A stretch of DNA of 64,000 bases from assembly GCF_018977255.1 (NCBI RefSeq), contig NW_024704839.1, forward strand, positions 1 through 64,000, written 5' to 3'. The position numbers were made by a program, and so were the translations under genes. This DNA comes from Callorhinchus milii (taxonomy: Eukaryota). The notes beneath the pieces are model-generated. The model did not search any database, was not told where the DNA came from, and was given only the letters and a program-made list of their open reading frames with translations. This document shows, one piece after another, positions 4,855 to 27,906 of this stretch (its first letter is position 1; each line of letters starts with the position of its first letter).

Positions 4855-4899
4855 TATACCTGATGATGATTGCTTGTGTTGCAATCGAAACGTCGTATG
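4855..4899 (+). ncRNA. Minimal type-I hammerhead ribozyme motif (subfamily B)
   Basis: ATAC-CTGATGA(4860-4866)-T-GATTGC-TTGTGTT-GCAATC-GAAA(4887-4890)-CGTC/GTAT. Stems I and II pair, and cleavage is predicted after C4894. Confidence 0.75.
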
Positions 4900-5089
4900 C
4901 TAGTATTTAATTTATTATTTTTTCTTGATACGTGACTTTACCGAAATAACCAAAGAGTAGCACCCGCTAAGATAATGTGGAATTTCCACGAGTGCAGTAT
5001 GACATTTGTGAATGATGTTACCATGTAAACCGTTTCAAAGTGTGTTATGGTGATACATTGGTGTGTGCTGTCCTGGGTCCGTGAGTGTG

Positions 5090-5410
5090 CATAACGCAGA
5101 GAAGCCGTTCTGCTGAAAGGTGTACGGCCACAGGTTCCGCCAGCACTGCCACCGGAATATCCACCTGCGCAAGCATAGAGGCGAAAAGCCCTACCGCTGT
5201 AGTGCTTCTCGCAAAGTTTCAGTTCCCAGCAGCACCAGCAGATACACAACGGTGATAGACTGCACCGCTGCAGCGATTGCGGATGCGGGATCCCACAGCC
5301 CGCCGACCTGAGGGCAAACGAGCGCACGCACACGGGCGAGAAGCCATATGGCTGCGACATGTGTGGCCAGACCTTCACGCGCTCCACCGGCCTGCGCTTC
5401 CACCAACTTT
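5090..5410 (+). pseudogene. Decayed C2H2 zinc-finger array fragment
   Basis: HLRKHRGEKPYRC and HTGEKPYGCDMCGQTFTRSTGLRFH pieces lie in different frames with deletions. Confidence 0.7.
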
Positions 5411-5929
5411 TGCACGTGGAGGAAAATATTTAGCGGTGCTGTCGGGAAATCTTTTCGAGGCCGTCGTAGGTTTTCACATTTGTGCCATTTCACGCCACAT
5501 GCTGTGAATATTCTTCAATTCGTGCACTTTTGGGTTGTGCCGCGTGTTGTTCGCCATAGCACGTGTTAGTGGGAATTTCCCGGCATGTAGAGCGAAACGT
5601 CGGACATCGTGTTGAACAACGCGGAGTGGCACAACCCGAAAACGCTTAAAAATGTTCTACTGTTAAAAACAATGGGGGCATCTGAAATTTGCTCACAAAG
5701 TTCAACATGGAGTACGAAAAATAATCTTATCACGTATACGTGGGAAATTTGACAGCAACTCTTCTTCACAAAAACGCGACATATTCGTCAATAACACAAT
5801 CCTAAAAGTAAAATATATAATAGGCAAGGTTTTGGATATTGGTTGTTTTCCATACCAGATAAAGAGGCCAGATAGACTGAATGCATAAAAGTTGAAGACG
5901 ACAGTATACACAAGGCCGTGATGAAAGAT

Positions 5930-6300
5930 TTATTTTAAGAATGTTTCCAGATGAGCAATCTTAACTTGGAATATGTATCGCTGTGATGTATCCTTCGTAT
6001 TTGTGAATCGGGCATTGCATTGTTATATGTTGTATGGTCTGTTCTGGATGACCACAGTCGCACACTGGAGATTTTAATTTTCCATTTGTGCATCAGGTAT
6101 CCGCATCTCCCATGGTTTGTGCGGATGCATTTTAAGGTGGACCATGAGCTTCGTGGAAGATCAAAATTATTTATCTGCTTTGGATTTTTCACATGGTGTT
6201 TGTGAGTTCTGTTGAACTCCCTTCAGTTTTCCAAGCTTAATCGGGGTTGAATTCGCATTGCTAAAGGTTCAAGGAATTGGACCTGTCTTGCCTCACGGCA
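5930..6300 (-). mobile_element. Non-LTR retrotransposon C-terminal fragment (Vingi/Ingi-like)
   Basis: FDLPRSSWSTLKCIRTNHGRCGYLMHKW motif. It continues the 7082-7650 fragment on the same strand. Confidence 0.65.
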
Positions 6301-6302
6301 GA

Positions 6303-7081
6303 TGTGGAGCGTATGTTCACAGGAAGTTCCTGTTTTTTATGCTAATTTTGGTCACGTGACCAGGAAGTTACGATTTTAGATTTCCAATGTACCACGCGGG
6401 CGTCGGCCATTACATAGATAAGTCAAGATGGCGGCACGCATCGCATCTCAGTGAGACCACAGCCGCACTTGTCCATTGTGGGAGCTTAAGAAGCATTGTC
6501 TGTAAGTTGTTTATATTCCTATAATATTGGCAATGCTGTTGTAATGTTGGAATGACCGTTATAGTGATGTAAATGCCTTTATGGTGCCGTTAAGTTGTTG
6601 TAGTAAATACGAGGCCTAGTTAGTAACGAAGCCTGTGACTTTCCTTATTGTGGATGTTACTTGTGATTTAGTAGGTCGAGTCAGACTTGTGCCTATGTTG
6701 CGATCCTGAGAGTAAAGATGACGAAGTATCTCATCCACAGTTTAGTGTTATGTGTAATGCTGTACATTTGGGGTGCAGTGGGATGAATACACGATGTGCC
6801 TGTATGCAACGCACCGGCTTGTGCTTTTGTCTAGTTGTTCAGTGGTAATGTAGGGGCCTGGTCCGTCCAGGATCTATTGTTATCTAAGACAATGTTCTGA
6901 TGCTGTGGTGTTCATTGTGTTGGTGTTTCCGGATTATAACAGATGCTGTATCTGTGTTTTCTCACCAGTTTTACCTTGTTACAATCAATAAATGACGATT
7001 GGAGTTGGACGTTCATCCTGGCTCCGAGGATTTATTGAACGCAAGGTTATCTACTCGACTAGCGGTGCAACGCAGCGCACA
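6303..7081 (+). mobile_element. Probable solo LTR (~780 bp) nested in the LINE
   Basis: TG...CA ends with an imperfect terminal IR (TGTGGAGCG / CAGCGCACA) and AATAAA near 6987. It interrupts the LINE ORF. The TSD is only a partial match (GCAGA vs GCGAG). Confidence 0.5.
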
Positions 7082-7650
7082 GCGAGGCCGAGATAGGACC
7101 AAAATGGCTTGCATGACGTAATGCAATAGCGAGGGACGTTATTGAGGTCCTGATGAATGGGAAGGCGGCTGTTTTGCTCAATTCGCAGGATTTCCCGGAG
7201 GGTTGCAGAGTTGTGATGGATTGGGGAGAGACGTGACAGCACGGGAAGCCAGGGTGTTGGGGTCGACTTGAAGGTTCCAGTGGTACACTGCATTGCAATG
7301 TTCCATTGGACATTAACAAGTTGAGAGTGACTACTTCTGGTCCATACTGGTTCACAGTACTCGGCTATAGAGTACGCAAGGGCCATCATTGGTGTCCATA
7401 GCACTGGTGCTGATGCTCCCCAGCTTGTGCTTGCCAGTTTGTGGACCAGGTTGACCCTTGTTTTGGTTTTGGCGGCTACCTTTTTCATGTAGTCGCGGAA
7501 GGTTCGCGTACGGTCCAGCTTCATACTGAGATAGGTTGGAGTGGGGTTGTTGTTTCACAGTGTTGCCAGAGAAGGTCACTTTCAGAGTGTGCTGATGATT
7601 GGACAGGTGCTGATGATATGACAACTATTTCAGGACGATATTTGTAAGTG
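7082..7650 (-). mobile_element. Non-LTR retrotransposon RT C-terminal fragment (Vingi/Ingi-like), degenerate
   Basis: KLDRTRTFRDY...KLASTSWGAS...ALAYSIAEYCEPVW...TGTFKSTPTPWLPVLS. Confidence 0.75.
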
Positions 7651-8482
7651 TCCATCAGATAATTAAAATCTGGCCAATCACTTTAAGGAGTACAAATGAG
7701 TTTCATCTACTAAATGGAATGCGGCTGAGATATTGTTCGCCGACAAGATAGAGTGATGAACTCTGAGCATGTGCAGATGCTGAATGTTTTCGTTGCGTTA
7801 AAGGCGAATTGGAAAATGGCCTTCGCCCATTACGATCCACCACACCACTTGCTGTAAGGCCACGTACACGTGCTCCCCGACTCCCTCTATCTCTGTTTAC
7901 CACACGATCCGTGATGGGGACCAGCGGGAGCGAGGTTGAAGAGTTTCCCCACTAGCCGTGCTGGCCACTTAATGCCAGGGAAATTGATCTAGCGCATGGC
8001 CTCTGCCTGCCACGCTTATTCTCGAGCCTACCCCCTCCACGCTACTCAACATGCACACAATGTCAATGCCACACTTTGATACACTTACAGCGGTTTCTAT
8101 TGTCATAATCAGGGATAATTTTAGATGCGCGATGTGTTGATGATGCACCCAGGCCACACTCGCCATTCTCCCACTCACACCGTCTGTCTCAGGAAAACAG
8201 TTTTATTGCATTCCAACACGACCTGCCCTTTCCAACTTACCCCCTTGAGTGCTCGTGTATCTGGGTGCACCATCATATGCTACCCGGATTCTCCTGGAGG
8301 TGGTCTCGCGTCAAACTCACCCATGTTTTACCACAGGGTCCGGGAGTCTCCATCTCACACCGAACTTTGCCAATTCTCTCTCACAGGGGAAACCCATGGC
8401 CAGGTCACTCGCTAGGTTGCCGGGATGAAAACGCAGGTGGAGAGGTTCGGTTTGTGTGTTCTAGTTGACCTAAGCGCTAGTC

Positions 8483-8845
8483 GGGGTGTGTGCATGGGGT
8501 AAATGCATGTTGTGTCTGTGCATGGGGTGTGTGCGTGGTGTGTGTATGTGTGCGTGGGGTGTGTGTGTGGTGTGTGCATGGGGTGTGTGTGGGTGTATGT
8601 GTGCGTGAGGTGTGTGGTGTGTGCATGGGGTGTGTGTCTGTTTGTAGGGTGTCTGTGTGGTGCATGCATGGAGTGTTTGTGTGGGATGTGTGCATGGTGT
8701 ATGCAGTGTGAGTATGCGTGGGGTGTATGTGTGCGTGGTGTGTGGCGTGTGCGTGGGGTGCAAGCATGGTGTGTGTGTGTGTGGGGTGTGCTTGTTATGT
8801 GAATGGTGTGTATATGCGTGGGGTGTATGTGCGTGTGTGGTGCAA
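8483..8845. repeat. GT-rich compound microsatellite
   Basis: (GT)n/GGGGT/GCAT mosaic. Confidence 0.9.
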
Positions 8846-9169
8846 GCAAGTAAAACAATCTTCATAAACGTTCCAACAAAACCATAAATGCCAAAAAAAC
8901 ATTGCTACAAATGAAAAATATATATTTACAAAATACTGAAAAAATTGTATTTACAAAATACTGAACACGAGGCTTGTTTGCAAACTTTCATGAAAGCAAG
9001 ACATATTGCACATTTACATCTTCTGCATTAATACTGTCACTGTGACGGTCTTCCTCGAAATTCAATACACGGTGAAACTAAACTAATATATATTACAGTT
9101 ATTATATACGAGTTAAAAACATCCTTAGCTATTTCAGTAACAGTGAGTCAAGAGAAAGGAGGGTGTTAT

Positions 9170-11470: not shown

Positions 11471-12394
11471 GAGAGGTTGCAGGATGGCCATGTCTTGGGG
11501 TCTGGGGTCGGGTCTCCGTCTCTTCCATTCCAGGTGTTGACATCCCCCGGTGGCGTCACCTGTTCCGGCCACAAACCCAGGGGAAGCATGGGTCATTAAG
11601 GGACAGGGCACTCAAGACACACAGCAGGTCTCCAAGTCGTGTCTCACGATGCTGCATGACACAGTGCGACAAGCGAGTGGAACACGGACGAGAGAAGCAG
11701 CCAGCTGGATGCAGTGCGACACAAATTTGGATTTATCTTTTCCATGTAAAATTTGTAGATAATATGTTTTGGGGTGACGGAATGTCAACATACATTTCCT
11801 CAGGATGATCATGTATTTTTAAGCTATGTTAATTAGACATTCCGATTGTTATGAAATAAATAGCTTACAATAAAACTGAACTCCTAGACAAAATAATCCT
11901 TTCCTTTACAATACAGATCTTTGGTTTGTTTCTGAAATTGAACATTTATCTTGTTGATTGTACTTTAGCTGAAAGATTTAAATGTATTACGCGAGAGCTG
12001 AGCTTCTGTTAACAAGCCAAAATAAGAGCTGAGCTATTTTTTAATGTAATCTCCGAGCGAATTGTTACATAATATTATTTAATGTTTGCTTTTCAACATT
12101 CCAGTTTCCTGAAATCTAAATAAATTGGCATATTTGCCCACGTGACAACATCGTTTGATTGGCTATCAGTAGAGGGAAAAGCTGAAAATCGGCAGATACC
12201 TCGACGATCTAACCCAAAAGTAACGAATTATGAATCTAAGATTGGTCGTGAAAGCCGAGATATAATATTTTTTAACCTTTTAACGTGCACAGTACTCGCT
12301 CACTCTCACAACGCGAGAAACCACAGAATCACAATTGTCTAAGCTCCGAGGTCCTCGATACGTTAAGATGTTATCGGCCAAATAATGAGTTGCT

Positions 12395-13110
12395 TTAAAA
12401 GGTGGAGGAAACTGGAGATCCGGAAAAAAAACCCCACACATGCGAGGCGGAAACACTCAACCCCATACAGACGGAACAGGTGGAGTCCACATTTTTGTTG
12501 TACTGCCTTCTCCTGGCAAGCCAGGATACGGCGTCCACGGGAAAGGGAGTAATCCACCAACCCTTACCTCCACTAGACTGGAGTGGTGGGCTGCGCCAAT
12601 GATGGGGGCCTTTATTCTTCCGCATTGCAACAGCAATGCTTCCGGACAAATCTAAGAAATGTCCGGAGTCGCTGCCGCACTCGTGCAAATCTCCGCCCAG
12701 GCCCCCTCGATGCCTTCGTTCCGGTGTTGGCGACAGCTTCACTTGTCGCTTGATGGCTGTGCTGGTGTTCCACCAGGGCAGTGTGGGAACTGCCGCTCGA
12801 GCTGCTGCGCTGGTGTTCCACCAGGGCAGTGTGGGAACTGGCGCTCGATCTGCTGTGCTGGTGTTCCACCAGGGCAGTGTGGGAACTGGCCGCTCGTGCT
12901 GCTGTGCTGGTGTTCCACCAGGGCAGTGTGGGAACTGGCGCTCGATCTGCTGTGCTGGTGTTCCACCAGGGCAGTGTGGGCACTGGCGCTCGATCTGCTG
13001 TGCTGGTGTTCCACCAGGGTAGTGTGGGCACTGGCGCTCGAGCTGAAAGAGAGTTGTAAGTGCCACTGTTATGCCTCTGTCTGTCTTTCATTATTTGTGC
13101 TGAAACTTTC
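12395..13110 (-). CDS. Kinase last exon with six 16-aa repeats (frameshift near 12890)
   Basis: AG acceptor at 13111-13112. Phase joins SRL|KVSAQIMK. Repeat is APVPTLPWWNTSTADR. Confidence 0.6.
12400..12560 (-). mobile_element. SINE-like repeat with a V-domain-like segment (second copy at ~18210-18362)
   Basis: GGAGGAAACTGGAGATCCGGAAAAAAAACCCCAC is the reverse of the V-SINE core, and the two copies align. Confidence 0.55.
12756..13042. repeat. 48-bp tandem repeat, 6 copies
   Basis: TTCCACCAGG recurs at 12768, 12816, 12864, 12913, 12961 and 13009 (one 49-bp step). Confidence 0.95.
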
Positions 13111-13519
13111 CTACTGCAGTACAATTCCATTATCTATCCTACGACTACTCCCTGCCCTGCCCCACGGCCACAACCAGGACTACCCCTATCAGAATATATT
13201 CAGAATCAGAATATTGATTTAGACTGTGGGAATATTACGACCTATAAAGCTCCTTCTCACAGATGTCAAGTACATCACTGCCCCTACCCCTATCGCTACC
13301 CCAAACGATCAAGCAGAGTGGTGGGAATTCCCCATTCCCATAGCAGGGGCCAATCTATAAATGAAGACCAATGTAAGAATTATGTCCAGTACTGCTGGAC
13401 ATTATACTGGACATCCGTGAAAAAGAGCTTCATAGCTTATCGAATTTGAAAAACATCAAAGTCACTTCATGAGAACTTAACCGACACAAATATTCTTCAA
13501 GATGCACGTGGAGACTCAC

Positions 13520-13750
13520 AATCGGCTCTTGGATGACACGAAATGTTTCTCGAGATCTAACCCAGAATCATTCGTCCTTCCCTTTTCGCATTGGCTCACA
13601 CGATCCACCTCCACGATCTCGTCCATTTTAATCGATGCGTCCACTGCATCCGGTTCATTGTGACTAGCGTGGCTTTCGACCTTGGTGCCATCCTGAATCC
13701 ACTTGGAGCTCAAAGCCCCTTCAGGCGTGAGCCGGCGAACGGGATCCCAC
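13520..13750 (-). CDS. Kinase exon, subdomain XI (WDPVRRLTPEGALSSKWI) plus tail
   Basis: ggcAG acceptor, GTGAGT donor, phase 2-2. Confidence 0.75.
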
Positions 13751-14017
13751 CTGCCAAAATATAAACGGGGAATCGTCAGGGTTCAGTTACCGTCTACATT
13801 TCTTCTAGGTGTGGCACATGCAATTATTTACATTCATTGTGCTAACGAATGTAAGAAGGCACAAGGCCAGAAATATTGCCCTGTTATGACACAAAGCCAC
13901 TTCCTGTCAGTAAAACATCACTCTTAGTAGTGTGTACTCTTTTATGAAAGTGCTGATGGTGAACACGAAAATAATTATGAATTAAGATAATATGTAGACA
14001 GTGCAGTTATATCTTAC

Positions 14018-14135
14018 TCAAGGCATCCTTCGACGAAATCGATTATCTCTCTGTTCGTATTCCAAAGCTTTTTCTCAATAGAGGAGGTGTTTGGAAAGAC
14101 CTTCCTGCCGTCCACCCTGTGGCACCCATTCTTGT
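14018..14135 (-). CDS. Kinase exon, CMGC-insert region (DKNGCHRVDGRKVFP...IIDFVEGCLE)
   Basis: acacAG acceptor, GTAAG donor, phase 1-2. Confidence 0.7.
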
Positions 14136-14300
14136 CTGTGTTGGAGAGAAAATGAGTGAAACGAGTTCCGAGGAATAAGAACAAAGTACATTTCGATTTA
14201 AAGCTTTCGTGACTGCAGGGATTCATCTTCTTGGTTCTTTCGGTAAAGTCACGTAGAATGGAAATAATAAAATAATAAAAATAAAACATAATAAAATAAT

Positions 14301-14348
14301 TCTCACGACGTTTCGGCCACAACGCAAGCAGCCGTCCTCAGGTGAAGA
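14301..14348 (-). ncRNA. Minimal hammerhead motif (subfamily A, CUGAGGA core)
   Basis: Reverse complement reads TTCAC-CTGAGGA-C-GGCTGC-TTGCGTT-GTGGCC-GAAACGTC-GTGAGA. Confidence 0.7.
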
Positions 14349-14387
14349 CCAGGTCTGTAATTTGTATTGTTGGGAAGACAGACCTGG

Positions 14388-14436
14388 TCTTCACCTGATG
14401 ACGGCTGCTTGCGTTGTGGCCGAAACGTCGTGAGAA
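14388..14436 (+). ncRNA. Minimal hammerhead motif (subfamily A)
   Basis: TTCAC-CTGATGA(14395-14401)-C-GGCTGC-TTGCGTT-GTGGCC-GAAA(14422-14425)-CGTC/GTGAG. Confidence 0.75.
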
Positions 14437-14580
14437 TTATTTTATATGTTTTATTATTATTTTATTATTTCCCTTCTACGTGACTTACCAAAAGAACCAA
14501 GAAGAAGAACAAAGTACATTACGGCAATGCTTGCCTGAATAATTGTGACAACAGAAGTAGCAACCTGCCCTCCCACTCAC

Positions 14581-14640
14581 CCGTGGAAATGTGCATTCTG
14601 GTCGCAGCATCAATCATAGGACTGGTGGGAGACCAAGAAT
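14581..14640 (-). CDS. Kinase exon (ILGLP...PMIDAATRMHIST) with a 1-nt deletion
   Basis: cacAG acceptor and GTGAGT donor. It is 60 nt where 61 are needed, giving an in-frame TGA at ~14614-14616. Confidence 0.65.
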
Positions 14641-15218
14641 CTGTGCACAGGTCACAGTGAAATTAATATACATGGGTTAGGTCATTGGACTGTGTGTATC
14701 GTAAACATACATACAGTAGACTTCCTCAAATGTAAAGGTCTATAAAACTGAAACGTTTATTCCCAAGAACTGCACATCCTTTTACACCACTGCCAAATAG
14801 ATTTAATTTGTATTGGGTACTTAATTAACAAATATTGCCCTTTGAAGGTGACTTCAGGAACCTTCGGGACGAACAATGAACCCGAAGAATGGAAAGGGTA
14901 AAAGTCTGTCACTCTGAGTTATTATGACCAAGGCCAAATCACATCATACGTGTCCAACTAGTGTCTGATCACATTAAAGATATGTCTATTCTCTATGTAC
15001 ATACTGGCAGCAGAGCAACATTTGTTCCCATGGAATGAGGCCAAAAGTATGATTGCTCCACAGATTACTTGAACCGTGTATTGCAATCCAGGGCAGTCTC
15101 CTATATCGTTGTTAGCGACTAATGGACCATCACTCAGCATTAGCAGTGTGAGCCGGCTCAACTAAAACTAAGCCATAGGCTTCAAAATCATAAATAATGA
15201 GATTATATTTTGCCATAT

Positions 15219-15394
15219 TTCAGGTACCGTGATCATTCGGTCAATTGGATTTCCTGTTGCCGTGAAAAGTGACTCCCCAGAAGCGAGCTCGGCAATTATG
15301 CAGCCCAGGGACCACATGTCCACTGCGCAGGTGAGTTCGAGGCCCAGTAATATCTCTGGAGCCATGTACTCGAACGTTCCGAAAAATCCGAAAA
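15219..15394 (-). CDS. Kinase exon, subdomains VIII-X (FGFFGTFEYMAPE...DMWSLGCIIAEL...DRMITVPE)
   Basis: gtgcAG acceptor. The expected donor reads ATATGG, and there is a weak alternative GT donor after 15228. Confidence 0.85.
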
Positions 15395-15754
15395 CTGCAC
15401 ACACACACAGAGGAATAGCACTGATTGAGCGAGGAGATCATGCACGTTATTTGCTTAGATTTTTTAGTGCACGCGGATTTTAAAAAACATGTTATAGGAT
15501 GTTAACCTTTATAATTCTATACAGCAATTGAATGTGTATCTTTCTACAACTGGGTCAAAACTGGAAAAGCGTGAGTGGCACTCCAAGAGATGGTTTGAAT
15601 TTTGGGTAAAGTTGTTTGCAAGCACCTATTAAGGCCTATATGACCTATTAAGGCCTCTGTGGCTGAGGATTAAACTGAGTCACTGAGATTGTAGTGCACT
15701 GCAGTGCTGCTCACCATGCCACGTTTCCACACGCACACACATAAGAATAACAGT

Positions 15755-16215
15755 CGCCATTTGCCACTAAGTGGCGGTGACGTCACCACGGCGCCTGTGC
15801 CAGGCCAGGTGCACTTTGAGGCCACTTGAAGTGTCGAAGGTTCACCGACAGGTCACGGGACCGAAATGAGTGGCAGATGCACCAACTATGCCCCCTGTTG
15901 TGCCAACACACATATAAGACAAAGATCCCCCGTGTAGCCTTAGCAGACTGTTGGGGCAAGTGCTGTTCACGAGCACCTATGAAGGCCGGCACGGCACACG
16001 AGGGGGTGGGGTGGCCAGCACTACGCCCGGCTGATTTTGTCTCCCTAGTGGCGATGTTTACTACACACCGCACTAGGTGCTAAGTTGGGGCTGAGTCGAC
16101 CTAGGGGGACCCAGCACCGGTTCAGATAATCGTCACTTGTGTCGGCCATGAGCGGGAATCGGGGCGGCCAGGTGCGTAGCGCACTGCGCTAACCGCTGCA
16201 CTAGCACTCCCACTC
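15755..16215 (-). mobile_element. tRNA-derived SINE and adjoining repeat (related segments at 27910-28290)
   Basis: Reverse A/B-box-like head near 16150-16210. Segments align with 27912-28285. Confidence 0.55.
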
Positions 16216-16286
16216 GTATATCCACGAAGATTCACAAAGACACACAGAGACACACCCTCGCACGAAACACAAGTAAAACCACTCAC

Positions 16287-16368
16287 TTGGCTTCGTCATC
16301 ATGACACTCACGCCAAAATCAATTATCCTGATGTTGCCGGTTGCATGGTCTTTGACCATGGTGTTTTC
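16287..16368 (-). CDS. Kinase exon with DFG (ENTMVKDHATGNIRIIDFGVSVMMTKP)
   Basis: ttttctAG acceptor, GTGAGT donor, phase 0-1. Confidence 0.85.
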
Positions 16369-16814
16369 CTAGAAAAAAAATAACAAAGGGCAATAGTGGT
16401 TAACGTTCAAATGTGTTCATGGCATGCAGCTCCTACCGTTTAGACATCCAGTTAAGACTGCATTTTACATATTCAGTTTAAGGTGGTTCTCTCCTTTACT
16501 CGTGTAAGAAATGTGTCTAACTTTGGGCCAATTGTAGCTGTTGTCATTGTGACGAATGTAAATTAGAATCTCTTCAAATAAACTGCAGAGTGAGCTCGAG
16601 AGCAAGAAGAGATAGACAATGTCCAAGATTGAAACGAGTGTCGATTATTTTTATACATTTATGAAAACAAAAACATTCGTGTTGTTCAATGCGGTATAAG
16701 GTGCAGGGTGTATGGTTTTTAATTTTAGAGTTACGGGAGAGGCATCTTTCGTCACAGTTGCCTCAAGGCAACACAAATCCATGAATGACGCAGTATGCTA
16801 TTGTATTTACTTAC

Positions 16815-16950
16815 CGGCTTCAGGTCGCCATAAATGATGGCCTCCTTCTTAAGTTTTGCCAGGGCTGTCAACAGGGATCTTGCATAGAGCCTGATTGTTG
16901 ACGGCGCAAAGATCGTGGAGTTGGCCTGGAATTGATCAAATAGGTCGGTG
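16815..16950 (-). CDS. Kinase exon with catalytic loop (...IIYGDLKP)
   Basis: tgcAG acceptor, GTAAGT donor, phase 2-0. Confidence 0.85.
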
Positions 16951-17228
16951 CTGCAAGACAAGATACCGTCAATGGTTATTTCCCTGCCACTTCTTGGTCA
17001 ATGCTTAGGCTCGCTTCATGAACTCGGGGACTTGTGTTTTACAATAGTTTAGGATTTTTATCATGTAAAACCAAATTAAAATTTCTCCCAGGGGAATGAT
17101 GATGAAACATGACCTGCATATTGGGTTTGAGAAATATAATAATATCAACTTATAACATGCACAGTAATCACTCACAGTAATATAAAGAGAAAATTACTCA
17201 GAGGTACGAGGAACCACAAACAGAAAAT

Positions 17229-17557
17229 TTCGATTTAAAACTTTCGTGACTGCAGGGATTCATCTTCTTGGTTCTTTCGGTAAAGTCACGTAGAAGGGAA
17301 ATAATAAAATAATAAAAATAAAACATAATAAAATACAATTCTCACGACGTTTCGGCCACAACCCAAGCAGCTGTCCTCAGGTGAAGAACAGGGCTGTCGG
17401 AAAGATTCGGACGCTGTCTTTCTGACAGCCCTGTTCTTCACCTGAGGACGGCTGCTTGCGTTGTGGCCGAAACGTCGTGAGAATGTTATTTTATTACGTT
17501 TAATCTTTATTATTTTATTATTTCCCTTCGACGTGACTTTACCGAAAGAACCAAGAA
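17229..17557. mobile_element. Palindromic Penelope-like insertion, hammerheads on both arms (17341-17388 minus, 17433-17483 plus)
   Basis: Same arms as the 14193 copy. Imperfect TSD CACAAACAGAAA / CACAAACAGGAA. Confidence 0.8.
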
Positions 17558-17655
17558 CACAAACAGGAAGTCAACCAAGTGATGAGGAGGCGCCAACAGA
17601 TGCCTAAGCTCTGCGGTCTTGTATATATCAAGGTATTATCAACAACATTTTGAAC

Positions 17656-17908
17656 CTATGAGACATCTCCTTTACCAGTGGCAAAATATAGTAATACGTT
17701 TTTACCCTTTCAACTGGTACAAAACTGACACCTTTATACAAGGCATCATGTTTGCAATAACTACAACACAAGCAGTCTGTTTGCATTTTGACTGCTTGTG
17801 TTGTGGTTATTGCAAACATGATGCCTTGTATAAAGGTGTCAGTTTTGTACCAGTTGAAAGGGTAAAAATCTATTACTATATTTCGCCACTGGTAAAGATG
17901 TCTCATAG
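17656..17908. repeat. Second-family long hairpin (~120-bp arms, 12-nt loop); further copies of the arm at ~18090-18195 (+) and ~43020-43215 (-)
   Basis: CTATGAGACATCT...GCAGTC / GACTGC...AGATGTCTCATAG. ORFs on both strands translate almost identically. Confidence 0.85.
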
Positions 17909-18483
17909 TGTAAATGCTTACTCCGTGCTCTCAATACTCTGATAGTGCGCTGTTTTTGAGTTGTACGCCTTTTGGCGTCATCTGGTCCAACACCAATGGA
18001 GACTAGGCTCTAAGGAAAGCTGTCTCGGGTGTGTACCAATCAACTTCAAGGACAGTGCATATCATTATCATCATCAGAGTTGTTTCTTTTTGTTTGCATT
18101 TTGACTGCTTGTGTTGTGGTTATTGCAAACATGATGCCTTGTATAAAGGTGTCAGTTTTGTACCAGTTGAAAGGGTAAAAACCTATTACAACATTTTGAG
18201 CGTTTACATGTTGGAAGGAACCGGAGCCCCCAGACAAACCCCACACTTTCGAGGGGGACAATACTCTGTCCCATACAGGTGGAACAGGTAGAGTCGACAT
18301 TTGTGTTCTACTGCCCTCTCCTGACAAGCCAGGGTATCACACCTCGACGCCCACGGTAGGGAGTTTCGTTCATAGGGCTCATTATGAGAATTTGCTGTTG
18401 CATCTGGTTTCATGATGAAGGTAATGGGTGAGACAGGACATTGCGGTAGGTAGCAATGTTGTTTACAGATAACGAGAAACATT

Positions 18484-18668
18484 ACTCTTGGTTCTTTCGG
18501 TAAAGTCACGTATAAATATAAAATAATAAATTAAATAATAGCATACGACGTTTCGATTGCAACACAAGCAATCATCATCAGGTATTATTTAATTTATTAT
18601 TTTATCTTTATACGTGACTTTACCGAAAGAACCAAGAGTAATTCCTGCAGTCACGAAAGCTCCAAAAT
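18484..18668. mobile_element. Palindromic Penelope-like insertion with a minus-strand hammerhead (18542-18585, subfamily B)
   Basis: 14-bp TSD TAACGAGAAACATT at 18470-18483 and 18669-18682. Confidence 0.85.
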
Positions 18669-18884
18669 TAACGAGAAACATTGTTTACTGTATTTGTAAT
18701 TATTATGAAGTGCTATGTTTTAATGTGCTGTACAATGTAAAATGGTGGTACCACTCTAATTAAGGTGGGAGAGTATCGTTGCATCATAAACAGTTACGTG
18801 CCAGGTTAAGGAGGCACCCATGTCCATTTCATCTTTTAAAAACTACCAATAAAGCCTTAAAATAAAACGGCTGGGACATTCCGA

Positions 18885-19265
18885 TGGGTGGTGACATGGC
18901 CTAATGGCAGTAGGATCCCCGCCTTTCGTCGAGGTTCATGGTTCGAATCCAGCAGCCTCCCTGATTAATGCAGCTCTAATAATAGCACGCACCGTGTCTG
19001 TCTCACAGCCGATGTCAAATTCGAAAATTACCCAAAAAATTACTTTAATTGCCGTTGTACAACTTAGGAATCATCGCCCCCCCCCCCTACTGGCAATCTA
19101 ATACCCCAGGTCACTGTTGCAAATGAGACGCATCCTGGTCTAATCTTAATTTTGGAGCTTTCGTGACTGCAGGAATTATTCTTTGGTTATTTCGGTAAAG
19201 TCACGTGACTTTACCGAAAGAACCAAAGAATAATGCATCCTGGTCTCTTAAGTTCTCACCTGCTC
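18885..19265 (+). mobile_element. tRNA-derived SINE, interrupted by the 19142-19234 insertion
   Basis: A box TGGCCTAATGG and B box GGTTCGAATCC. The 3' part resembles 20450-20530. Confidence 0.55.
19142..19234. mobile_element. Minimal loop-less palindromic Penelope-like insertion (no ribozyme retained)
   Basis: 12-bp TSD GCATCCTGGTCT at 19130-19141 and 19235-19246. Centre is AAAGTCACGTGACTTT. Confidence 0.85.
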
Positions 19266-19369
19266 AAACAAAAAAAAAATATCTGAAATTCAGCGAATGT
19301 TATCTGCACGTTTTAAAAACTTGCTTGAGATAAACACGATGTTGGCGCACATATGTGATATTTACTTAC

Positions 19370-19510
19370 GTGATGAGCTCCATAATGAAGGCGGGATGAT
19401 GTCTGAACAGAAGGTGTCCGAGAAATCTAATAATGCAGTTATTTTCTGTGTCCTTGGACTGCAACGCATTCATGATATGCGCCTCCATTCTGCATTTCTG
19501 AATGTTGTTG
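19370..19510 (-). CDS. Kinase exon, helix C to hinge (NNIQKCRMEAHIMNALQ...FRHHPAFIMELI)
   Basis: cacAG acceptor, GTAAGT donor, phase 2-2. Confidence 0.8.
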
Positions 19511-20667
19511 CTGTGGAGGGAATGCATCGATAAGTCTCACCCCACTCTTTAAGTCTTGCATATTTTTAGGCATTATCACACACATGGGATGGCTCAGTCA
19601 ACAGAGCTCCAGAATCATGGCTATGAGCGCTTAATCCCGGTCAACGTCGACATCGTCCCTGCCCGGTCGACGTAATCAGCGCCAACTGGGGAAGCTGCAC
19701 CAATTGGTTGGGAAGTTGTCAATGGTCGTTACTCGAAGGAGTTACCGCATCCCATCTCAGTGAGGTGAAAATTGTGCACCACTGGATTATGATCACTGTA
19801 GTTTTTGAGCTATGTTAAGCGAGTAAGGTAGAAAGTGTCCTGCTGCTCCAACCCAAACTGTGGACGATATTGTCAACCAATGTAGTCTTTGCTGCTTTAA
19901 TGTGGAATTGCAAAAGTAAAACAAAAATCTCTCCTGAAGACCTCTTGTGGCTAGCAGACCTTGGCATTGGTATTTAGTGCCTGAACATGTTGCCATATAG
20001 AAGAATAGAATATAATGAGCAAAAGGGCAGCACTCATCCACGCTGTTGGTCAGTGGTTTGATCGCCACGTTCACGTGGCAGGCACCATAAAATTACATAT
20101 TGCCTCTTCATGACAAATCAAACATTATTTTGATGGTGTTTGATGACATTTATGAAATTATAAACTCATACAGAAACAACAGCTTCTGATAGAGATGGAT
20201 ACATGACCCGGCAGCAGCACGTTCGCCACTCGTTGCAGAGGTTCAAGGTTCGATTCAAGTGGCCGCTCTTATTAATACTGCGGGTGTATAACCATAATGC
20301 ATGCTGTCTGCTTCGATGGATGCTAAAGATCACCTGACGTAATTTGCAAGAGTATGCCACTGTGTGCTTGTAACTGGGTACAATGTTTGCCAATATCGAA
20401 ACCTACACCACAAATCCCTCAATTTGTATTGTGCAACATAGCAATCATTGTCCCCTACTGGCAGATTAATGCTCCAAGTCACTCTTGCAAATGAGACTCA
20501 TCATGGTCTCTTCAGTTCTCACGAGGTTAAACAAAATCAACTTTAAAATTATTACTGTTTAGACTTCCTCTGAAATGTGTAAATTAACACAAATTCTTAC
20601 AAGCTATGGTTCTCTTCACGAATTCAGATCTTTTTAAAATGTGGTCCATGTCGTTGTTCAAACTTAC

Positions 20668-20804
20668 GTAGAAGTGTTCGCTAGCATCTTGATGGCCACT
20701 TCTTTTTTCGTCTTGTGGTCCAGGCATCGGAGTACCTGCCCAAAGGACCCCTTCCCAATCACATTCAGTACTTGGAAGCGGTACACCAAGTGTTCATCCG
20801 TGAT
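20668..20804 (-). CDS. Kinase exon, Gly-loop and VAIK (EHLVYRFQVLNVIGKGSFGQVLRCLDHKTKKEVAIKM)
   Basis: ttccAG acceptor, GTAAGT donor, phase 0-2. Confidence 0.9.
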
Positions 20805-21107
20805 CTGGAACAAGATTACACAAGTGTTCAGTACTCAACCAGGGCCCTCTCTGAGTGCTCAAACATTACTCAGTCTAAACACACGGCTCATTCAAGTTCT
20901 CATTTATCAGTCACTGGTTTGACATTCACACACTCATGCACATGTCTGAGCTCTCTCTGATGTCTCTGCCAAATACATCTTTGCCTCACGCTGGAAACCA
21001 CTAAATCATTCTATGCAAAGTGTGGGTTATAGAATGTCCTTTATCTGTATTTATGAAGCTTTTTTCTCAGAGCTGGATGACAAAGATAGTCACTACATCG
21101 CGCGCTT

Positions 21108-21200
21108 CGAGATGCACTTCTGCTGCTGTCTGGAATGCTCTTCCTTCCGATATTAGGAAGCCACTGGAGCGATGCACTGTTAAATCTAGATTTAAAACCC
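21108..21200 (+). mobile_element. L2/CR1-type LINE 3' end fragment (second copy at 26095-26215)
   Basis: WNALPSDIR...FK..LKT motif, shared between the two copies. Confidence 0.55.
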
Positions 21201-21646
21201 AAAATCACAGATGCCAAATTTCAGGCCCTTTCTCCTTCAGCCTCGTTCACTTTTACATAGCCATGTTCATTCAATTCCCGGATTCCACCCACACAGTTAG
21301 TGGCCTCACTCTGTATGCCCTGCATACTATACTCATAGGCTATGCCAACCCCACCCACTACTCAGGTAGCCCCACCTTTTGGTCGTATCAAGAGTTGAGC
21401 ATTAGGCCAGAACATTTTCATCGATACAAATTCAAAAAAAAAATTGTAGTTGCTTTGTGGCACCAGGAGAGCCTTTCTGAAAATGTCCAAAACCAGGACA
21501 TTGAGTCGCTTAACATTTAAGTGTTCTTCACATAGAAAATCATGAGCAACATATTAGGTATACACGTGCGTGTAAGGGATGTTGTGGTTTATAGTGGAAT
21601 GCATGATTTAGTTGCAATGAGCATGGCCCATATTGGAGAGTCTTAC

Positions 21647-21795
21647 CGGAATGTAGTGGTCGTTGATGTCATCGTAGCCATTATTGGAAGGGCCATTTCG
21701 TTCAGAACGAATCTTGAAATAATAAACTTCATTGATTTTCAATATTTCTCGACGTTCCTGCACTGTCATTCTGTCTTTGAATTTGTCCAAGACTT
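21647..21795 (-). CDS. Kinase exon, NAPA/DH-box region (EVLDKFKDRMTVQERREI...NNGYDDINDHYIP)
   Basis: gtgcAG acceptor, GTAAGA donor. Aligns with the class-2 DYRK N-terminal accessory region. Confidence 0.8.
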
Positions 21796-22062
21796 CTGCA
21801 CACACACATGCCCAAAGACACACATGGTCATTCATGCACATATACACGTGTGCAACAAACGTAATTACAATCACAAATAAACCGAGCACATAATGTTACA
21901 CTTAACAAAGAGACTCGATTTGGGCCTCTTGTATGTGTGCTGTTAACGGATTTGTAAAGCCATTTAGGGATTGGCTCTAGATAGATGTGGATGTGTGTTT
22001 GTTATAGAGGAGTGTGGCAGTAATTCATGTGGTGAATGATGCTGAATAAAGTGAAGTAAAAC

Positions 22063-22120
22063 CTTGTGGTGTGCAGCTCATCCCTGCCACTGGGAAGACG
22101 ACTTCATCTAATGGATTTGC
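22063..22120 (-). CDS. Kinase N-terminal exon (ANPLDEVVFPVAGMSCTPQ)
   Basis: aacAG acceptor, GT donor. Phase 0-1 joins to give TPQEVLDKF. Confidence 0.55.
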
Positions 22121-23012
22121 CTGTTTTTGTCACACAGATGCACACAGAGAGGCACACGTGAACATGCAGGCAAGCATACAGACATGGACATTTCTACAGA
22201 GACACAGTGGTACACCCACAAACACCCACTGAGAGACTGCTTGTGGAAGGGCCTAAATCGCAGGGAGCTCTCAGAGGATTACCCTAGAGGGTAATTTTTG
22301 GCCATCACTTCCGCGAGAACATGAAACGGTGCCCATATTCCCAGAAGCTAATGGCCAATTCCATAAAACATTTTAAACTGCATTTTTCATTGATTTCTAA
22401 TTTACAAAAATATGACTGAAGGGTCAATTGATGAAAGTATTTTATTAAACTGGTTCCAGGTCACGCACCTAACCGCATTCATGAAGTCCAAGTAGAGCTA
22501 CGACCAAAGTGTGCTGTGTAGTAAGCTTGTGTGTGTTTGTGTCCTGGTAGGTTCACTAGTACTAGAGTCCCTTACTGCAAACTCAGCTGATAAGCATTGC
22601 CTTGAATGTTTCACGAGTCTACCGTGTGTATGCGTGTTTGTGCCATTAGGTCAAAGCAGCCCGTCATGGTCCTGATTACCGCACCACCATTTCGAGTGCA
22701 CCACCGTACTAGTTGTAATAGATGTTTACTAACAGCACTTGCCCCAACAGTCTATAGAGCTTACACGAGTTGGGGGGGGGGGGTGGTGGAACTTTGTTTC
22801 TTTGCTGTCAGGTAATAAACACATTTGGTGAAGTGACCTGAAAGCCTGCACTGTGTGTCGGGCTTGTGGTCTGTGTCAATTGTATGTTAGAATGTCAGTT
22901 AAATATGTAGTCCACGACTACTACAACCGAAGAAGTGAACTTGTCTCTGCATTGTGCTTATAAGAGTTTGCTGTCAAGTGAGTTGCTATCCGTACATTCG
23001 GCGAACACTTAC

Positions 23013-23066
23013 CTTGTGCACAGGTGCAGAGTTATCAGCGAGTTGAGCCTTCTCCAAAAGATCGTT
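23013..23066 (-). CDS. Kinase N-terminal exon (NDLLEKAQLADNSAPVHK)
   Basis: gacAG acceptor, strong AAG|GTAAGT donor, phase 0-0. Confidence 0.5.
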
Positions 23067-23662
23067 CTGTCACACAGCAAAAGTATAATATTAAAACCTC
23101 AACAATCTCCTTTGACATTCTTCATTCAACCAAGTTTAGAGCAGCAAGGGAGACCTGTCCAGCAGATGTGACACTCTCCTGGAACTGTCTTCAAATGGGA
23201 GTTAAAATCCACGTTTAGATATTGAGAATACAGCTCGTTCTTCCTTGAAGGGTTCCTGAAAAAATTAAGTGCCACTTTGTGGTAATCAATTAGTTGTCCG
23301 TATATTTAAATATGAGCCTCGCCATACGAATGTGGAATTTACACCACAGGGAAATCACTACCGATGACATGAAGCGTCATAGCTTATTGAGCCCTTCCGC
23401 AACCATCACCAACAACATCTACCTAAACCACAATCGCCATTAGCATCACTAGCACCACCACGAAAATTGTCTCTGCCATCACCACAATCACCACCAAACA
23501 GCAACTAAACTATTACCTATCACTACAATTACAATCTTCACGTAAGTATCACTTGCAACACTCAACACGAGCAAAGAGGAGCTTCCCTATCACCATCAAC
23601 ACAATCACCAAGACCATGACAAACATCATAGTACCATCTTTAACATCATTACCATCACTTAC

Positions 23663-23673
23663 CTTGGATACAT
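23663..23673 (-). CDS. Possible first coding exon (ATG TAT CCA AG|gtaagt)
   Basis: ATG followed by a consensus donor beside a CpG-rich region. The next exon probably starts at ~23255, but its donor is unresolved. Confidence 0.4.
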
Positions 23674-23689
23674 CTCTCGTCGAATAACT

Positions 23690-23965
23690 CGCACTCACGC
23701 GACAGGGTGACATTTTAACGGCGCACACGCGGCAAAGCCAGTATCCAGGGGGCGCTGTAGCTCGAGCCGCGTGCCGTCTCCACGAAGTTAAACGCCAGAA
23801 TAACGCGCCAGGCTAGTGACGTCACGGCATCCGGTTTTATTTCACCCGCGTGGAGAGTCACGTGGGCGTCTGTAACAACCCTTAGCTGGTTGTGACGTCA
23901 CTCAATGCCTGGTGCCGTCCGCCGTGGCCTCGTGGGTCACGTGGTTTTCAGTGAAACGTCACCCA
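23690..23965 (-). promoter_or_regulatory. CpG-rich putative promoter of the kinase gene, with two full CRE palindromes and two E-boxes
   Basis: TGACGTCA at 23817-23824 and 23893-23900. CACGTG at 23859-23864 and 23938-23943. Confidence 0.5.
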
Positions 23966-24095
23966 CCCACTATATGATGGCATACCATAATGTATGTGCA
24001 CCTGCAATCGTTTTCTGTGTTCAGTATAATTTAGCGTGCATGTGTGTTATATACATGATACGTTGTCTACAATACATGCATGTTTGCATGTATAT

Positions 24096-24507
24096 GGGGC
24101 CGTCCATAAATGACGTCACGTGATTTTGGACGATGTTTACCCCCCCCCCCCATTAGTCACACGGCGTCACAAAAAGTCAGACCCCCCTCAAATATGACGT
24201 CACAAAGCTCTGCCCCCCCCCCTCACAAAACCATATTTCCATTTTGAAAATAAAACATGCTTCAAATCGCTTTAAACTATTGTCATTGTAGTGCGTATTT
24301 AATGTGGCGCTGCACTCTGATGTCGGAGGAGAAAACATTTATTACAAAGTAAATTTAATTAAGTAGAACGTGTTGTCTATATTTATTTAAAGTTGCGAAT
24401 TTTGATGTGACGTCACATTTCTCAACCCCCCACCCCCCTCGTCACACATCGTCACAAATGTCTGACCCCCCCCCCCCAGGTGCGTGACGTCATTTATGGA
24501 CGGCCCC
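24096..24507. mobile_element. 412-bp MITE, PIF/Harbinger-like
   Basis: Perfect 25-bp TIR GGGGCCGTCCATAAATGACGTCACG, with TAT on both flanks. Confidence 0.85.
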
Positions 24508-24549
24508 TATATTATACGTATGCGAGTCCATATTATTATAAATCATATC

Positions 24550-24758
24550 TTCTTGGTTCTTTCGGTAAAGTCACGTAGAAGGGAAATAATAAAATAATAA
24601 AAATATAACATAATAAAATATTTCTCACGACGTTTCGGTCACAACACAAGCAGCCGTCTATGTTTTATTTTATTATTTTATTATTTCCCTTCTACGTGAC
24701 TTTACCGAAAGAACCAACAAGATGAATCCCTGCAGTCACGAAAGCTTTAAATCGAAAA
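24550..24758. mobile_element. Palindromic Penelope-like insertion (ribozyme truncated)
   Basis: 12-bp TSD ATAAATCATATC at 24538-24549 and 24759-24770. Confidence 0.8.
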
Positions 24759-24859
24759 ATAAATCATATCCTTATATTTCATGCCATTATAAATCTCAAC
24801 GTTCATCCTTCAAAGTCCCATCACAAGGGAGAAACACCGACAAAAATATATTTGTTTTA

Positions 24860-25010
24860 ATCTTGATTTTAAGCTTTCGTGACTGCAGGAATCCATACTC
24901 TTTGGTTCTTTCGGTAAAGTCACGTAGGTATAAAAATAAAATAAATCACGACGTTTCGGGCGCAACACAAGAGTCCGTCATCAGGTGGGAAAGCATGGTC
25001 TGCTGCTGAT
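24860..25010 (-). mobile_element. Single Penelope-like arm with a hammerhead (24945-24988, subfamily C)
   Basis: Reverse complement reads CCCAC-CTGATGA-C-GGACTC-TTGTGTT-GCGCCC-GAAACGTC-GTGATT. Confidence 0.75.
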
Positions 25011-25209
25011 GCAAACCACTCTACGCCATATGGACCTGCACACTCAATTCCCTGTACAAGAATACATGTAAAACGTATGGGTTGACAGGTATGATATATG
25101 GATACGTACACATAAAAATGTACCCCTCTGCCCCCGTGATGTCTGCGCGCCGAGTGAGTATTTGTGACGGTTGTGGCACTTAGAGTGATGCCCACAAAGT
25201 TGTAACACC

Positions 25210-25562
25210 TCGATTTAAAGCTTTCGTGACTGCAGGGATTCATCTTCTTGGTTCTTTCGGTAAAGTCACGTAGAATGAAAATAATAAAATAATAAAACAT
25301 CATAAAATACAATTCTCACGACGTTTCGGCCACAACGCAAGCAGCCGTCCTCAGGTGAAGAACAGGTCTGTCCTAAAGGAGTTTTGAAACATGTTTAATA
25401 TTTATTCTTTTATTATTTCCCTTCTACGTGACTTTACCGAAAGAACCAAGAAGATGAATCCCTGCAGTCACGAAAGCTTTAAATCGTCGTGAGAATTATT
25501 TTATTATGTTTTATTTTTATTATTTTATTTCCATTCTACGTGACTTTACCGAAAGAACCAAG
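25210..25562. mobile_element. Three-arm (inverted plus tandem) Penelope-like insertion with a minus-strand hammerhead (25315-25362)
   Basis: TSD AAGTTGTAACACC(TCG) at 25197 and 25563. Confidence 0.8.
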
Positions 25563-25865
25563 AAGTTGTAACACCTCGTCCAGGCAGCACTCTTGTGTGT
25601 AACTGATGTCGGCAATATGGCTGCAGAGGCGCTGTAACGTGATATAATGAATCCGCGACAGATTGAATGATAAATGATGTTAATGCAGAGGGAATTCATT
25701 AACACATTCCTGCGGAGGGAGCTGGTAGGAACGTTGGGTTGCTCGGTCAATGGCCAGGGTCAACGGCGGCGTGGTGTATTCAGGAAATATGCCCGACTGT
25801 GAGGGCGGGCACAAGCCGGCGTGAGTAGGTTAAACGTTGAGTTTTATACGGGCACCACGGGGTGA

Positions 25866-25978
25866 CCAGCCCCTCCCCACCCAGCCCCACCCCTCCCACT
25901 CCCCACCCAGCCCTTCCCCACCCAGCCCCTCCCCACCCTCCCCACCCAGCCCCTCCCTCCCCACCCAGCCCCTCCCTG
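25866..25978. repeat. C-rich minisatellite (CCCAGCCCCTCCCCAC variants)
   Basis: Read directly. Confidence 0.8.
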
Positions 25979-26610
25979 CACGACGGACGGACACAATAAT
26001 CCCCTGTGGACTGGTGTAACCAGGAGGTTCCTACCAGTATAACCCACAATTTAGAATTAATTCTGTCGCGAATTCATTATACTGTATCCTGTTACAGCGC
26101 TTCTGCGGCCGTCTGGAACGCTCTTCCTTCCGATATTAGGAAGCCACTGGAACGGTGCACCTTTAAGTGATCTGGCTTGAAAACTAATTTCTTTAGAACT
26201 GCTTTTTGTGTTTAGTTTGTTGTCCTTCCCCCGGACCCCCGATTGGCATGGTTGGATACAATGCGAAAAAAGTTCGACATATATACGTGGTAATATGCTG
26301 AAACTTTATTAAGGGGTTACATATTATATGCAGAACAGACTACACCGAGCCCTACAAGGCATCTACTGCAACACCGCACATAAACATGGAGCCAAACATG
26401 CCGTCTCACACGGAGTTGTGAATAAAGTGACTAAAGCACAAATCCTAACTCACAGCAAAATTCGACAAGAATGCAACCTGCCCTCTGCTGACATACAATC
26501 GCAACATTATCTTAACCCATGAGACAAGAGGACTGGTCGATACCAACTGGGGTAGCAAATGCTGAAGCGATGATGGGCAGAAACCTAAACGCAACGCCAT
26601 TGTCAGTCTT

Positions 26611-26909
26611 TACTCTTTGGTTCTTTAGGTAAAGTCACGTAGGTATAGAATAAAATAAATCACGACGTTTTGGGCGCAACACAAGCGTCCATCATCAGGT
26701 GGGAAAGCATGGTCTGCTGCTGAGGTTTGAGATACACCCATCTCAAACCTTTTTAAAACAGTCTGCCTCAGCAGCAGACCATGCTTTCCCACCTGATGAT
26801 GGACGCTTGTGTTGCGCCCGAAACGTCTTGATTTATTTTATACCTACGTGTCTTTACCGAAAGAACCAAAGAGTATGGATTCCTGCAGTCACGAAAGCTT
26901 CAAATCAAG
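26611..26909. mobile_element. Palindromic Penelope-like insertion, subfamily C hammerheads on both arms (each with a point defect)
   Basis: 12-bp TSD ATTGTCAGTCTT at 26599-26610 and 26910-26921. Plus-strand CTGATGA at 26793-26799 and GAAA at 26820-26823. Confidence 0.85.
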
Positions 26910-27821: not shown

Positions 27822-27906
27822 TGATTTGAAGCTTTCGTGACTGCAGGAATCCATACTCTTTGGTTCTTTCGGGAACCTACGTGACTTCACCGACAGAACC
27901 AAAGAG
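27822..27906. mobile_element. Short palindromic Penelope-like insertion nested in a SINE
   Basis: 12-bp TSD TATTAACAGACT at 27810-27821 and 27907-27918. Confidence 0.8.

Follow-up and report, generated by a model that had tools for sequence, protein, structure and literature searches.

Minimal hammerhead motifs of three variants in probable Penelope-like element ends of an apparently lamprey-derived 64-kb DNA window

We analyzed a stretch of 64,000 nucleotides (contig NW_024704839.1, positions 1 to 64,000; hereafter the window) and found ten full-length minimal type-I hammerhead motifs of three variants, denoted A, B, and C. Very probably, these motifs lie in reverse-transcribed 3′ ends (pseudo-long terminal repeats, pseudo-LTRs) of Penelope-like elements (PLEs), and most of them are predicted to be inactive where they sit. 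The host is a lamprey, as judged from protein matches of a kinase gene in the window (exon identity of 88% to Lampetra planeri and of 79% to a DYRK2-like protein of Petromyzon marinus).

Both strands of the window were searched for CTGANGA and GAAAC boxes 10–40 nt apart. Nine matches were obtained (mean of 1.02 expected; maximum of 4 in 100 shuffles). A relaxed search added a tenth full-length copy (26660-26702, minus strand), in which G12 is changed to A, as well as two 5′-truncated hammerheads (24619-24658, minus strand; ~41066-41095, plus strand). A covariance model built from the ten copies recovered all 12, ten of them by construction, and returned four further weak rows. The ten full-length copies (two of variant A, five of B, and three of C) trace to seven of the insertions I1–I11 listed further below and to only three lineages; nine have intact core boxes:

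4856..4898, plus strand: minimal hammerhead, variant A; passes the descriptor (see below); predicted cut after 4894; in I1
14303..14345, minus strand: minimal hammerhead, variant B; passes the descriptor; predicted to be paired with the antisense arm; in I2
14391..14433, plus strand: minimal hammerhead, variant B; passes the descriptor; predicted cut after 14429; predicted to be paired with the antisense arm; in I2
17342..17384, minus strand: hammerhead, variant B, damaged (G10.1 and loop changed); fails the descriptor; in I3
17438..17480, plus strand: minimal hammerhead, variant B; passes the descriptor; predicted to be paired with the antisense arm; in I3
18543..18585, minus strand: minimal hammerhead, variant A; passes the descriptor; stem II predicted to form; in I4
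24946-24988, minus strand: hammerhead, variant C, two stem II mismatches; fails the descriptor; in I7
25316-25358, minus strand: hammerhead, variant B; passes the descriptor; in I8
26660-26702, minus strand: hammerhead, variant C, G12 changed; fails the descriptor; in I9
26789-26831, plus strand: hammerhead, variant C, stem I broken; fails the descriptor; in I9

The alignment of these copies agrees with the original prediction in recognizing three variants with covarying stems, and it reproduces the stem sequences, the loop, the extra nucleotide, and the loop-less AC-GT given there. Stem I reads ATAC/GTAT in A and TCAC/GTGA in B, as had been stated; the CCAC/GTGA of variant C, a stem of just 3 bp, had gone unmentioned. 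Stem II occurs in the versions GATTGC/GCAATC, GGCTGC/GTGGCC, and GGACGC/GCGCCC, closed by the 7-nt loop TTG(T/C)GTT (TTGGGTT in one copy). An extra T or C follows the CUGANGA box (between A9 and G10.1) in all ten copies, the G10.1-C11.1 pair is present in nine, and stem III consists of AC-GT alone, without a loop, the palindrome ACGT being present in 10/10. The core had been described as constant, which holds for the boxes of nine copies but not for G12 at 26660-26702 or for G10.1 at 17342..17384. Similarly, the motifs had been located correctly, but at positions 1–5 nt off the 4-bp stems (starting at 4856, 18543, 14391, and 17438). Divergence amounts to 0–3 of 43 nt within variants and to 7–14 of 43 between them. 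Six copies (A 2/2, B 4/5) pass a descriptor of the published minimal hammerhead, which we implemented in our own script (helix I of 3–7 bp, CUGANGA box of 7–8 nt, helix II of 3–7 bp, loop of 3–10 nt, and GAAANNUH); 200 shuffles gave no match. The script places the predicted cuts after C4894 and C14429, the sites already proposed.

Minimal hammerhead ribozymes (min-HHRs) of metazoan PLEs, which lack loop 3, were defined by Cervera and De la Pena (2014; PMC4209133). The traits given are a longer helix II, a helix I of 4–5 bp, an unpaired base between positions 9 and 10.1, the G10.1-C11.1 pair, a palindromic 15.2-16.2, and covarying families, with pairs of motifs on opposite strands 100–700 bp apart. 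Their supplementary Fig. S3 includes a row for Petromyzon marinus, which is marked by a star as PLE-associated; its stem I reads UCAC/GUGA, its stem II GAUUGC/GUAAUC, and its loop UUGUGUU, and it carries a loop-less ACGU (PMC4209133). Compared by eye, this row is identical to A at 36/43 nt, to B at 36/43, and to C at 33/43, and it combines the stem I of B with an A-like stem II, every pair being kept, and so represents a fourth state. The motif family is already known from this description, which prints a lamprey example, and nothing in the motif is new; the original prediction missed both the described family and the fold-back PLE setting.

In the named structure, 90% of 130 cells are paired, against 20–56% for slid control pairings. 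Four of 13 pairs are doubly changed (two in stem I and two in stem II; three lineages sampled), and the variants differ at 11 of the 20 stem I/II positions compared with 3 of the 23 others (Fisher p 0.008). As far as the alignment goes, the doubly changed pairs appear to support covariation, short of proof. The stem differences might instead reflect drift among dead copies, with compensation arising by chance. In favor of drift, a genuine covariation statistic would require more than the three lineages sampled; four doubly changed pairs are attained by 33 of 500 shuffles, in a control that ignores relatedness; and variant C breaks two pairs (the outer pair of stem I and, in stem II, an A opposite C). 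However, the differences are common to separate insertions of a variant, which indicates that they arose in the source elements; they avoid the core and loop; the slid pairings fall well below the named one; and the published sea-lamprey row keeps all its pairs in a fourth state, which favors real compensation. We therefore regard drift as very unlikely. The earlier proposal of selection on the structure in the source elements gains support from the positional bias, the four doubly changed pairs, and the Petromyzon row. Selection on RNA structure would have kept the motif there, with the core, loop 2, and ACGU fixed and stems I and II turning over pairwise, and the motif would process the element RNA or help it to fold.

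Downstream of each motif come an AT-rich stretch and then a common block ending in a tail. Common block and tail delimit 11 insertions, with or without a hammerhead, and nine of these are head-to-head fold-backs of 85–350 bp:

I1, short end near 4959, plus strand: variant A, single arm; no target duplication found
I2, 14193..14504: fold-back, variant B; 16-bp duplication (14177-14192 / 14505-14520); left arm tailed; kinase intron
I3, 17224..17557: fold-back, variant B; duplication exact over 9 bp within a longer imperfect one; kinase intron
I4, 18484..18668: fold-back, variant A; 14-bp duplication; right arm tailed, without hammerhead; kinase intron
I5, 19142..19234: fold-back of 93 bp, 3′ end and tail only, without hammerhead; 12-bp duplication; kinase intron
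I6, 24550..24758: fold-back, variant B, 5′-truncated hammerhead; 12-bp duplication
I7, 24859..25016, minus strand: variant C, one tailed arm only; target duplication not found
I8, 25213..25562: variant B, three-part (inverted tailed, direct tailed, and direct short arms); 16-bp duplication
I9, 26611..26909: fold-back, variant C; 12-bp duplication
I10, 27822..27906: fold-back of 85 bp, limited to the variant C 3′ end and tail; 12-bp duplication
I11, 40946..41172: fold-back, variant B, 5′-truncated hammerhead; 12-bp duplication

Exact direct repeats of 9–16 bp flank nine of the 11 insertions, while random flank pairs (2000 trials) share at least 9 bp in 2.6% and at least 12 bp in 1.35% of cases. 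The two outer ends of a fold-back are unequal without exception (9/9): one lies 2–9 nt past an ACCA anchor (short end) and the other 34–45 nt past it (tailed end), which makes a difference of 29–41 nt (median 34). In each variant, the short end falls within a stem-loop of 7 bp with a loop of 29–33 nt. At the short ends of I4, I6, I8, and I10 (4/9 fold-backs), the continuation of the element shares 3 nt with the target where the duplication begins, a hint of transient pairing during priming. Predicted energies of the fold-back hairpins range from -28 to -227 kcal/mol.

Short, hairpin-shaped, non-coding insertions with direct repeats at their flanks could also be miniature inverted-repeat transposable elements, with a hammerhead-like motif present by chance in the inverted repeats. 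This explanation, to which we attach almost no probability, is already contradicted by the varying duplication length (9–16 bp), by the unequal outer ends, by inner ends that differ from copy to copy, and by the presence of single-arm and three-part forms.

The arrangement is that known from PLE insertions, in which an inverted 5′-truncated copy, a tail of 30–40 bp at one end, and target duplications have been reported (Craig et al. 2021, PMC8557442; Arkhipova et al. 2013, PMC3846280); a repeat of 34–37 bp in PLEs was described by Schostak et al. (2008; PMC2377424). For the PAc Poseidon element of Anolis, Frangieh et al. (2024; PMC11167929) found two internal start sites of reverse transcription at a stem-loop, and both target strands were cut and extended. 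By analogy, the element’s endonuclease would stagger its nicks 9–16 nt apart, and both target ends would prime reverse transcription near the stem-loop at the RNA’s 3′ end. One priming event inside the loop would yield the short end and the other, past the stem, the tailed end. Both cDNA copies would then stop after 30–180 nt and join head to head, the genomic copies being by-products of abortive insertion.

Two further interpretations of the ends were rejected. Arms starting at the ribozyme cut are not seen: the two starts that come within 2–3 nt of it still include bases located 5′ of the cut, and the remaining 5′ ends of the arms are scattered, none lying exactly at the cut site. Nor is the tail a shared start of an open reading frame (ORF), as its spacing differs by 1–4 nt and is out of frame between variants. 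For the frame upstream of the copy at 4856..4898, no relative was found among longer proteins. The sequence at 4500-4855, upstream of the same copy, is pyrimidine-rich and may be more of the pseudo-LTR; its boundary was not found. A search for relatives with the same tail gave two chance matches in viral contigs (phage coding frames), none in metagenome contigs, and none in prokaryote genomes.

The insertions could belong to a non-autonomous family of short hammerhead units that, like retrozymes, spread via circular RNA and borrow PLE enzymes, rather than being truncated ends of full-length PLEs. Animal retrozymes have been argued to be non-autonomous PLE derivatives (bioRxiv 10.64898/2026.07.22.740005), no ORF adjoins any of the copies, I8 contains a partial tandem, and two arms start close to the cut site, as noted above. 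However, retrozymes are by definition tandem repeats whose units each contain a hammerhead (bioRxiv 10.64898/2026.07.22.740005), and among 41 tandem-repeat rows for the window there is no array of hammerhead units; the arm 5′ ends are scattered, and the lamprey motif is printed as PLE-associated. Lampreys are absent from the main text of the preprint (bioRxiv 10.64898/2026.07.22.740005). We consider such a family unlikely and retain truncated PLE ends as the likely origin of the insertions.

Whether a copy could cleave in place was assessed by folding predictions. For the six copies placed opposite an antisense arm of their own, the probability of stem II in context is 0.00, compared with 0.97–1.00 for the copies at 4856..4898 (plus strand), 18543..18585 (minus), and 25316-25358 (minus); the copy at 24946-24988 (minus) is unstable by itself, and its stem II is not predicted to form. 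As the fold-backs have inward-facing heads, transcription from either flank produces the antisense arm ahead of the ribozyme, which this arm is predicted to bury. The lone motif is also predicted to collapse, with core bases 5–8 pairing with CGUC and the extra pyrimidine pairing with G12. In the source elements, a cut after GUC would be expected to require either strand exchange between two copies through the ACGU of stem III, probably assisted by the element’s protein, or folding of the motif by this protein. Both routes have published counterparts: a Schistosoma min-HHR does not cleave as a monomer, and its dimers and trimers cleave weakly (PMC4209133; dimer cleavage of such hammerheads is summarized in a 2019 review, PMC6765202), and the hammerhead of Anolis PAc cleaves only with the element’s protein, although insertion in vitro does not need cleavage (PMC11167929). 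When stem I strands are swapped between variants, B/C combinations keep 4+3 pairs and A/B and A/C combinations 3+2; the stem I changes may keep A from dimerizing with B and C. A candidate B/C heterodimer (25316-25358 and 24946-24988, both minus strand, 370 nt apart) was rejected, as stem II of the C copy contains two mismatches and does not form in the prediction.

Five PLE-type fold-backs, namely I2–I5 and an insertion of a further family (D, see below), lie in two introns of the kinase gene:

12615..23066, minus strand: DYRK2-like kinase gene, apparently intact; 12 exon matches to the Lampetra planeri protein

This gene spans at least 23066 to 12615, and its exon matches are flanked by GT/AG-type ends; no match to the first 24 residues of its nearest protein was found in the window. 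A 48-bp minisatellite of coding length (6 copies, 12756-13045) lies beside the last kinase exon and corresponds, once, to a brief segment of the Lampetra protein. Three hammerheads are intronic and sense to the kinase precursor mRNA (18543..18585, 17342..17384, and 14303..14345, all minus strand). The copies might thus act on the host, either by cutting this precursor or by forming regulatory double-stranded RNA, the more so as the copy at 18543..18585 matches the descriptor and is predicted to retain stem II in context, and as the fold-backs are predicted hairpins. However, the copy at 17342..17384 is damaged and that at 14303..14345 predicted to be buried, and the copy at 18543..18585 would have to do with an A/B swap of 3+2 pairs: the kinase coding span holds no free same-variant pair, which makes host cleavage unlikely. 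The copies also show ordinary decay in core and stems, and for the Anolis element no RNA sequencing reads end at the cut site (PMC11167929). A host role is very improbable. Among the sequencing runs listed, 20 of 24 contain at least half of the words of 13800-19600, from four organisms; no RNA run is listed as containing them, and the comparison carries no information on expression.

Apart from the small number of lineages, the shuffle control, and the broken pairs of variant C already mentioned, several results weigh against PLE ends carrying selected hammerheads. (i) Rfam scans returned no hammerhead match for the window (E 1) or for one copy (E 10); only microRNA-like hairpin matches below the gathering score were obtained, attributable to the fold-backs. 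(ii) All three variant C copies fail the descriptor, with boxes and loop present, and carry an A-C mismatch in stem II; variant C is a deviant sister variant, below descriptor-grade membership. (iii) Neither a PLE reverse transcriptase nor a GIY-YIG domain was found among the 121 frames of at least 75 aa that were scanned (out of 137 listed ones and three Gypsy frames; low-complexity and duplicate frames were left out), and no protein fixes the clade; truncated copies would not be expected to carry such frames. (iv) I1 and I7 show neither a target duplication nor an inverted arm. (v) The stability of the tail stem-loop is ordinary relative to shuffles (z -0.3 to -2.0; +0.6 for one copy with a stem change). 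(vi) Self-priming is the published alternative to double priming and was favored for head-to-head repeats by Arkhipova et al. (2013; PMC3846280). (vii) A nearest-neighbor model without tertiary contacts ranks double-hammerhead homodimers below a pair of collapsed monomers in stability, by 6.5–8 kcal/mol, a predicted deficit in line with the low published dimer activity.

Three of the four weak rows of the covariance model lead to another fold-back, which together with a second, diverged copy makes up family D:

17654..18187: family D insertion, inverted-tailed, direct-tailed, and direct-short arms as in I8; 12-bp duplication (17642-17653 / 18188-18199)
43025..43270, minus strand: second family D copy, diverged (~80% identical); hairpin at 43118-43136, no core

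The first copy contains hairpins resembling stem II at 18103-18121, 17790-17808, and 17759-17777, none with a catalytic core. Family D shares a word of 14–17 nt with the B-type stem II and loop, some of the 17 nt crossing a junction; in 3000 random stretches of 104 nt, the longest such word was 12. In both copies, an 8-bp outer helix encloses a 6-bp hairpin that corresponds to stem II of B except for the second pair, which has become A-T. A 7-bp stem with a 33-nt loop, unrelated in sequence to the tail of A–C, follows about 52 nt further on; in this stem, an A-T pair of one copy is replaced by G-C in the other. Exact core boxes are absent from both copies, and six loose matches with one mismatch lie elsewhere than at the hairpin. 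Tentatively, family D could be a sister lamprey PLE family that lost the catalytic core and kept the stem II hairpin and, equally far from it as in A–C, the shaped tail stem-loop, a reading that we hold possible but doubtful. The loop of the second copy differs at 4/7 bases and the family is known from two insertions only, both of which count against a loss of the core. Alternatively, family D could be a Naiad, a PLE clade without canonical hammerheads (PMC8557442). No title or abstract opening among the papers listed describes a coreless stem II in a PLE, a coverage outside which most subscription papers fall. If the core was indeed lost, helix II and the tail stem would be the parts needed by the retroelement protein, with catalysis dispensable, and A, B, C, and D would offer a natural series with which to study the purpose of PLE hammerheads.

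The remainder of the window contains other repeats and genes. A Gypsy-type LTR retrotransposon (~29750-37030, minus strand) carries two terminal repeats that are nearly identical, along with long frames for gag, protease-reverse transcriptase-RNase H, and integrase. A hAT/SPIN-like transposase in two frames (43921-45821, plus strand) comprises a Spin-doc zinc finger, DUF4371, and a hAT dimerization domain. It is followed by a 364-bp tandem array (46036-53175; 19.6 copies, 99% identical) that ends at a run of N and may in part be an assembly product; a diverged relative is found near 63504. Pieces of C2H2 zinc-finger genes occur at 38251-39009 (minus), 5203-5430 (plus), and 42123-42704 (minus), one of them split over two frames; a 194-aa frame among them has no Pfam match and is a possible upstream exon.

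As a known motif family in an insertion pattern long known for PLEs, the finding has little weight of its own. It is useful in that one window holds three hammerhead variants and a coreless look-alike, a like-shaped stem-loop at the end, and the rule of one tailed and one short end. The function of PLE hammerheads has been called unclear (PMC8557442), and a hairpin kept where the core was lost would give a direct handle on it.

With the PLE min-HHRs (PMC4209133), the copies share (i) type I topology; (ii) the lack of loop 3; (iii) the C15.2-G16.2 palindrome; (iv) a 6-bp helix II and a helix I of 4–5 bp; (v) several families per genome, with apparent covariation; (vi) close pairs on opposite strands; and (vii) the extra base, the G10.1-C11.1 pair, and the UUGUGUU loop. 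In contrast, A, B, and C differ from the printed lamprey sequence, C having a 3-bp stem I and an A-C mismatch, and none of the copies within this window carries an ORF. The animal non-LTR retrozymes are likewise non-coding, PLE-related, and equipped with a type-I hammerhead, but form tandem arrays, whereas the fold-backs here are dispersed. In Anolis PAc, too, the hammerhead lies in a pseudo-LTR and two 3′ end points at a stem-loop define the tail (PMC11167929). Its sequence differs, its reverse transcription starts without target homology in vitro, whereas 4/9 short ends here overlap the target, and no ORF start can be placed here, the tail spacing being out of frame across variants. Finally, the endonuclease-positive PLEs (Penelope/Poseidon, Neptune, Nematis, Hydra, and Naiad) have duplications of 8–10 bp in Adineta compared with 9–16 bp here, where the inserts measure just 85–350 bp; they show the same 5′ truncation, inverted 5′ copy, partial tandems, tail of 30–40 bp at one end, and target duplications (PMC8557442, PMC3846280).

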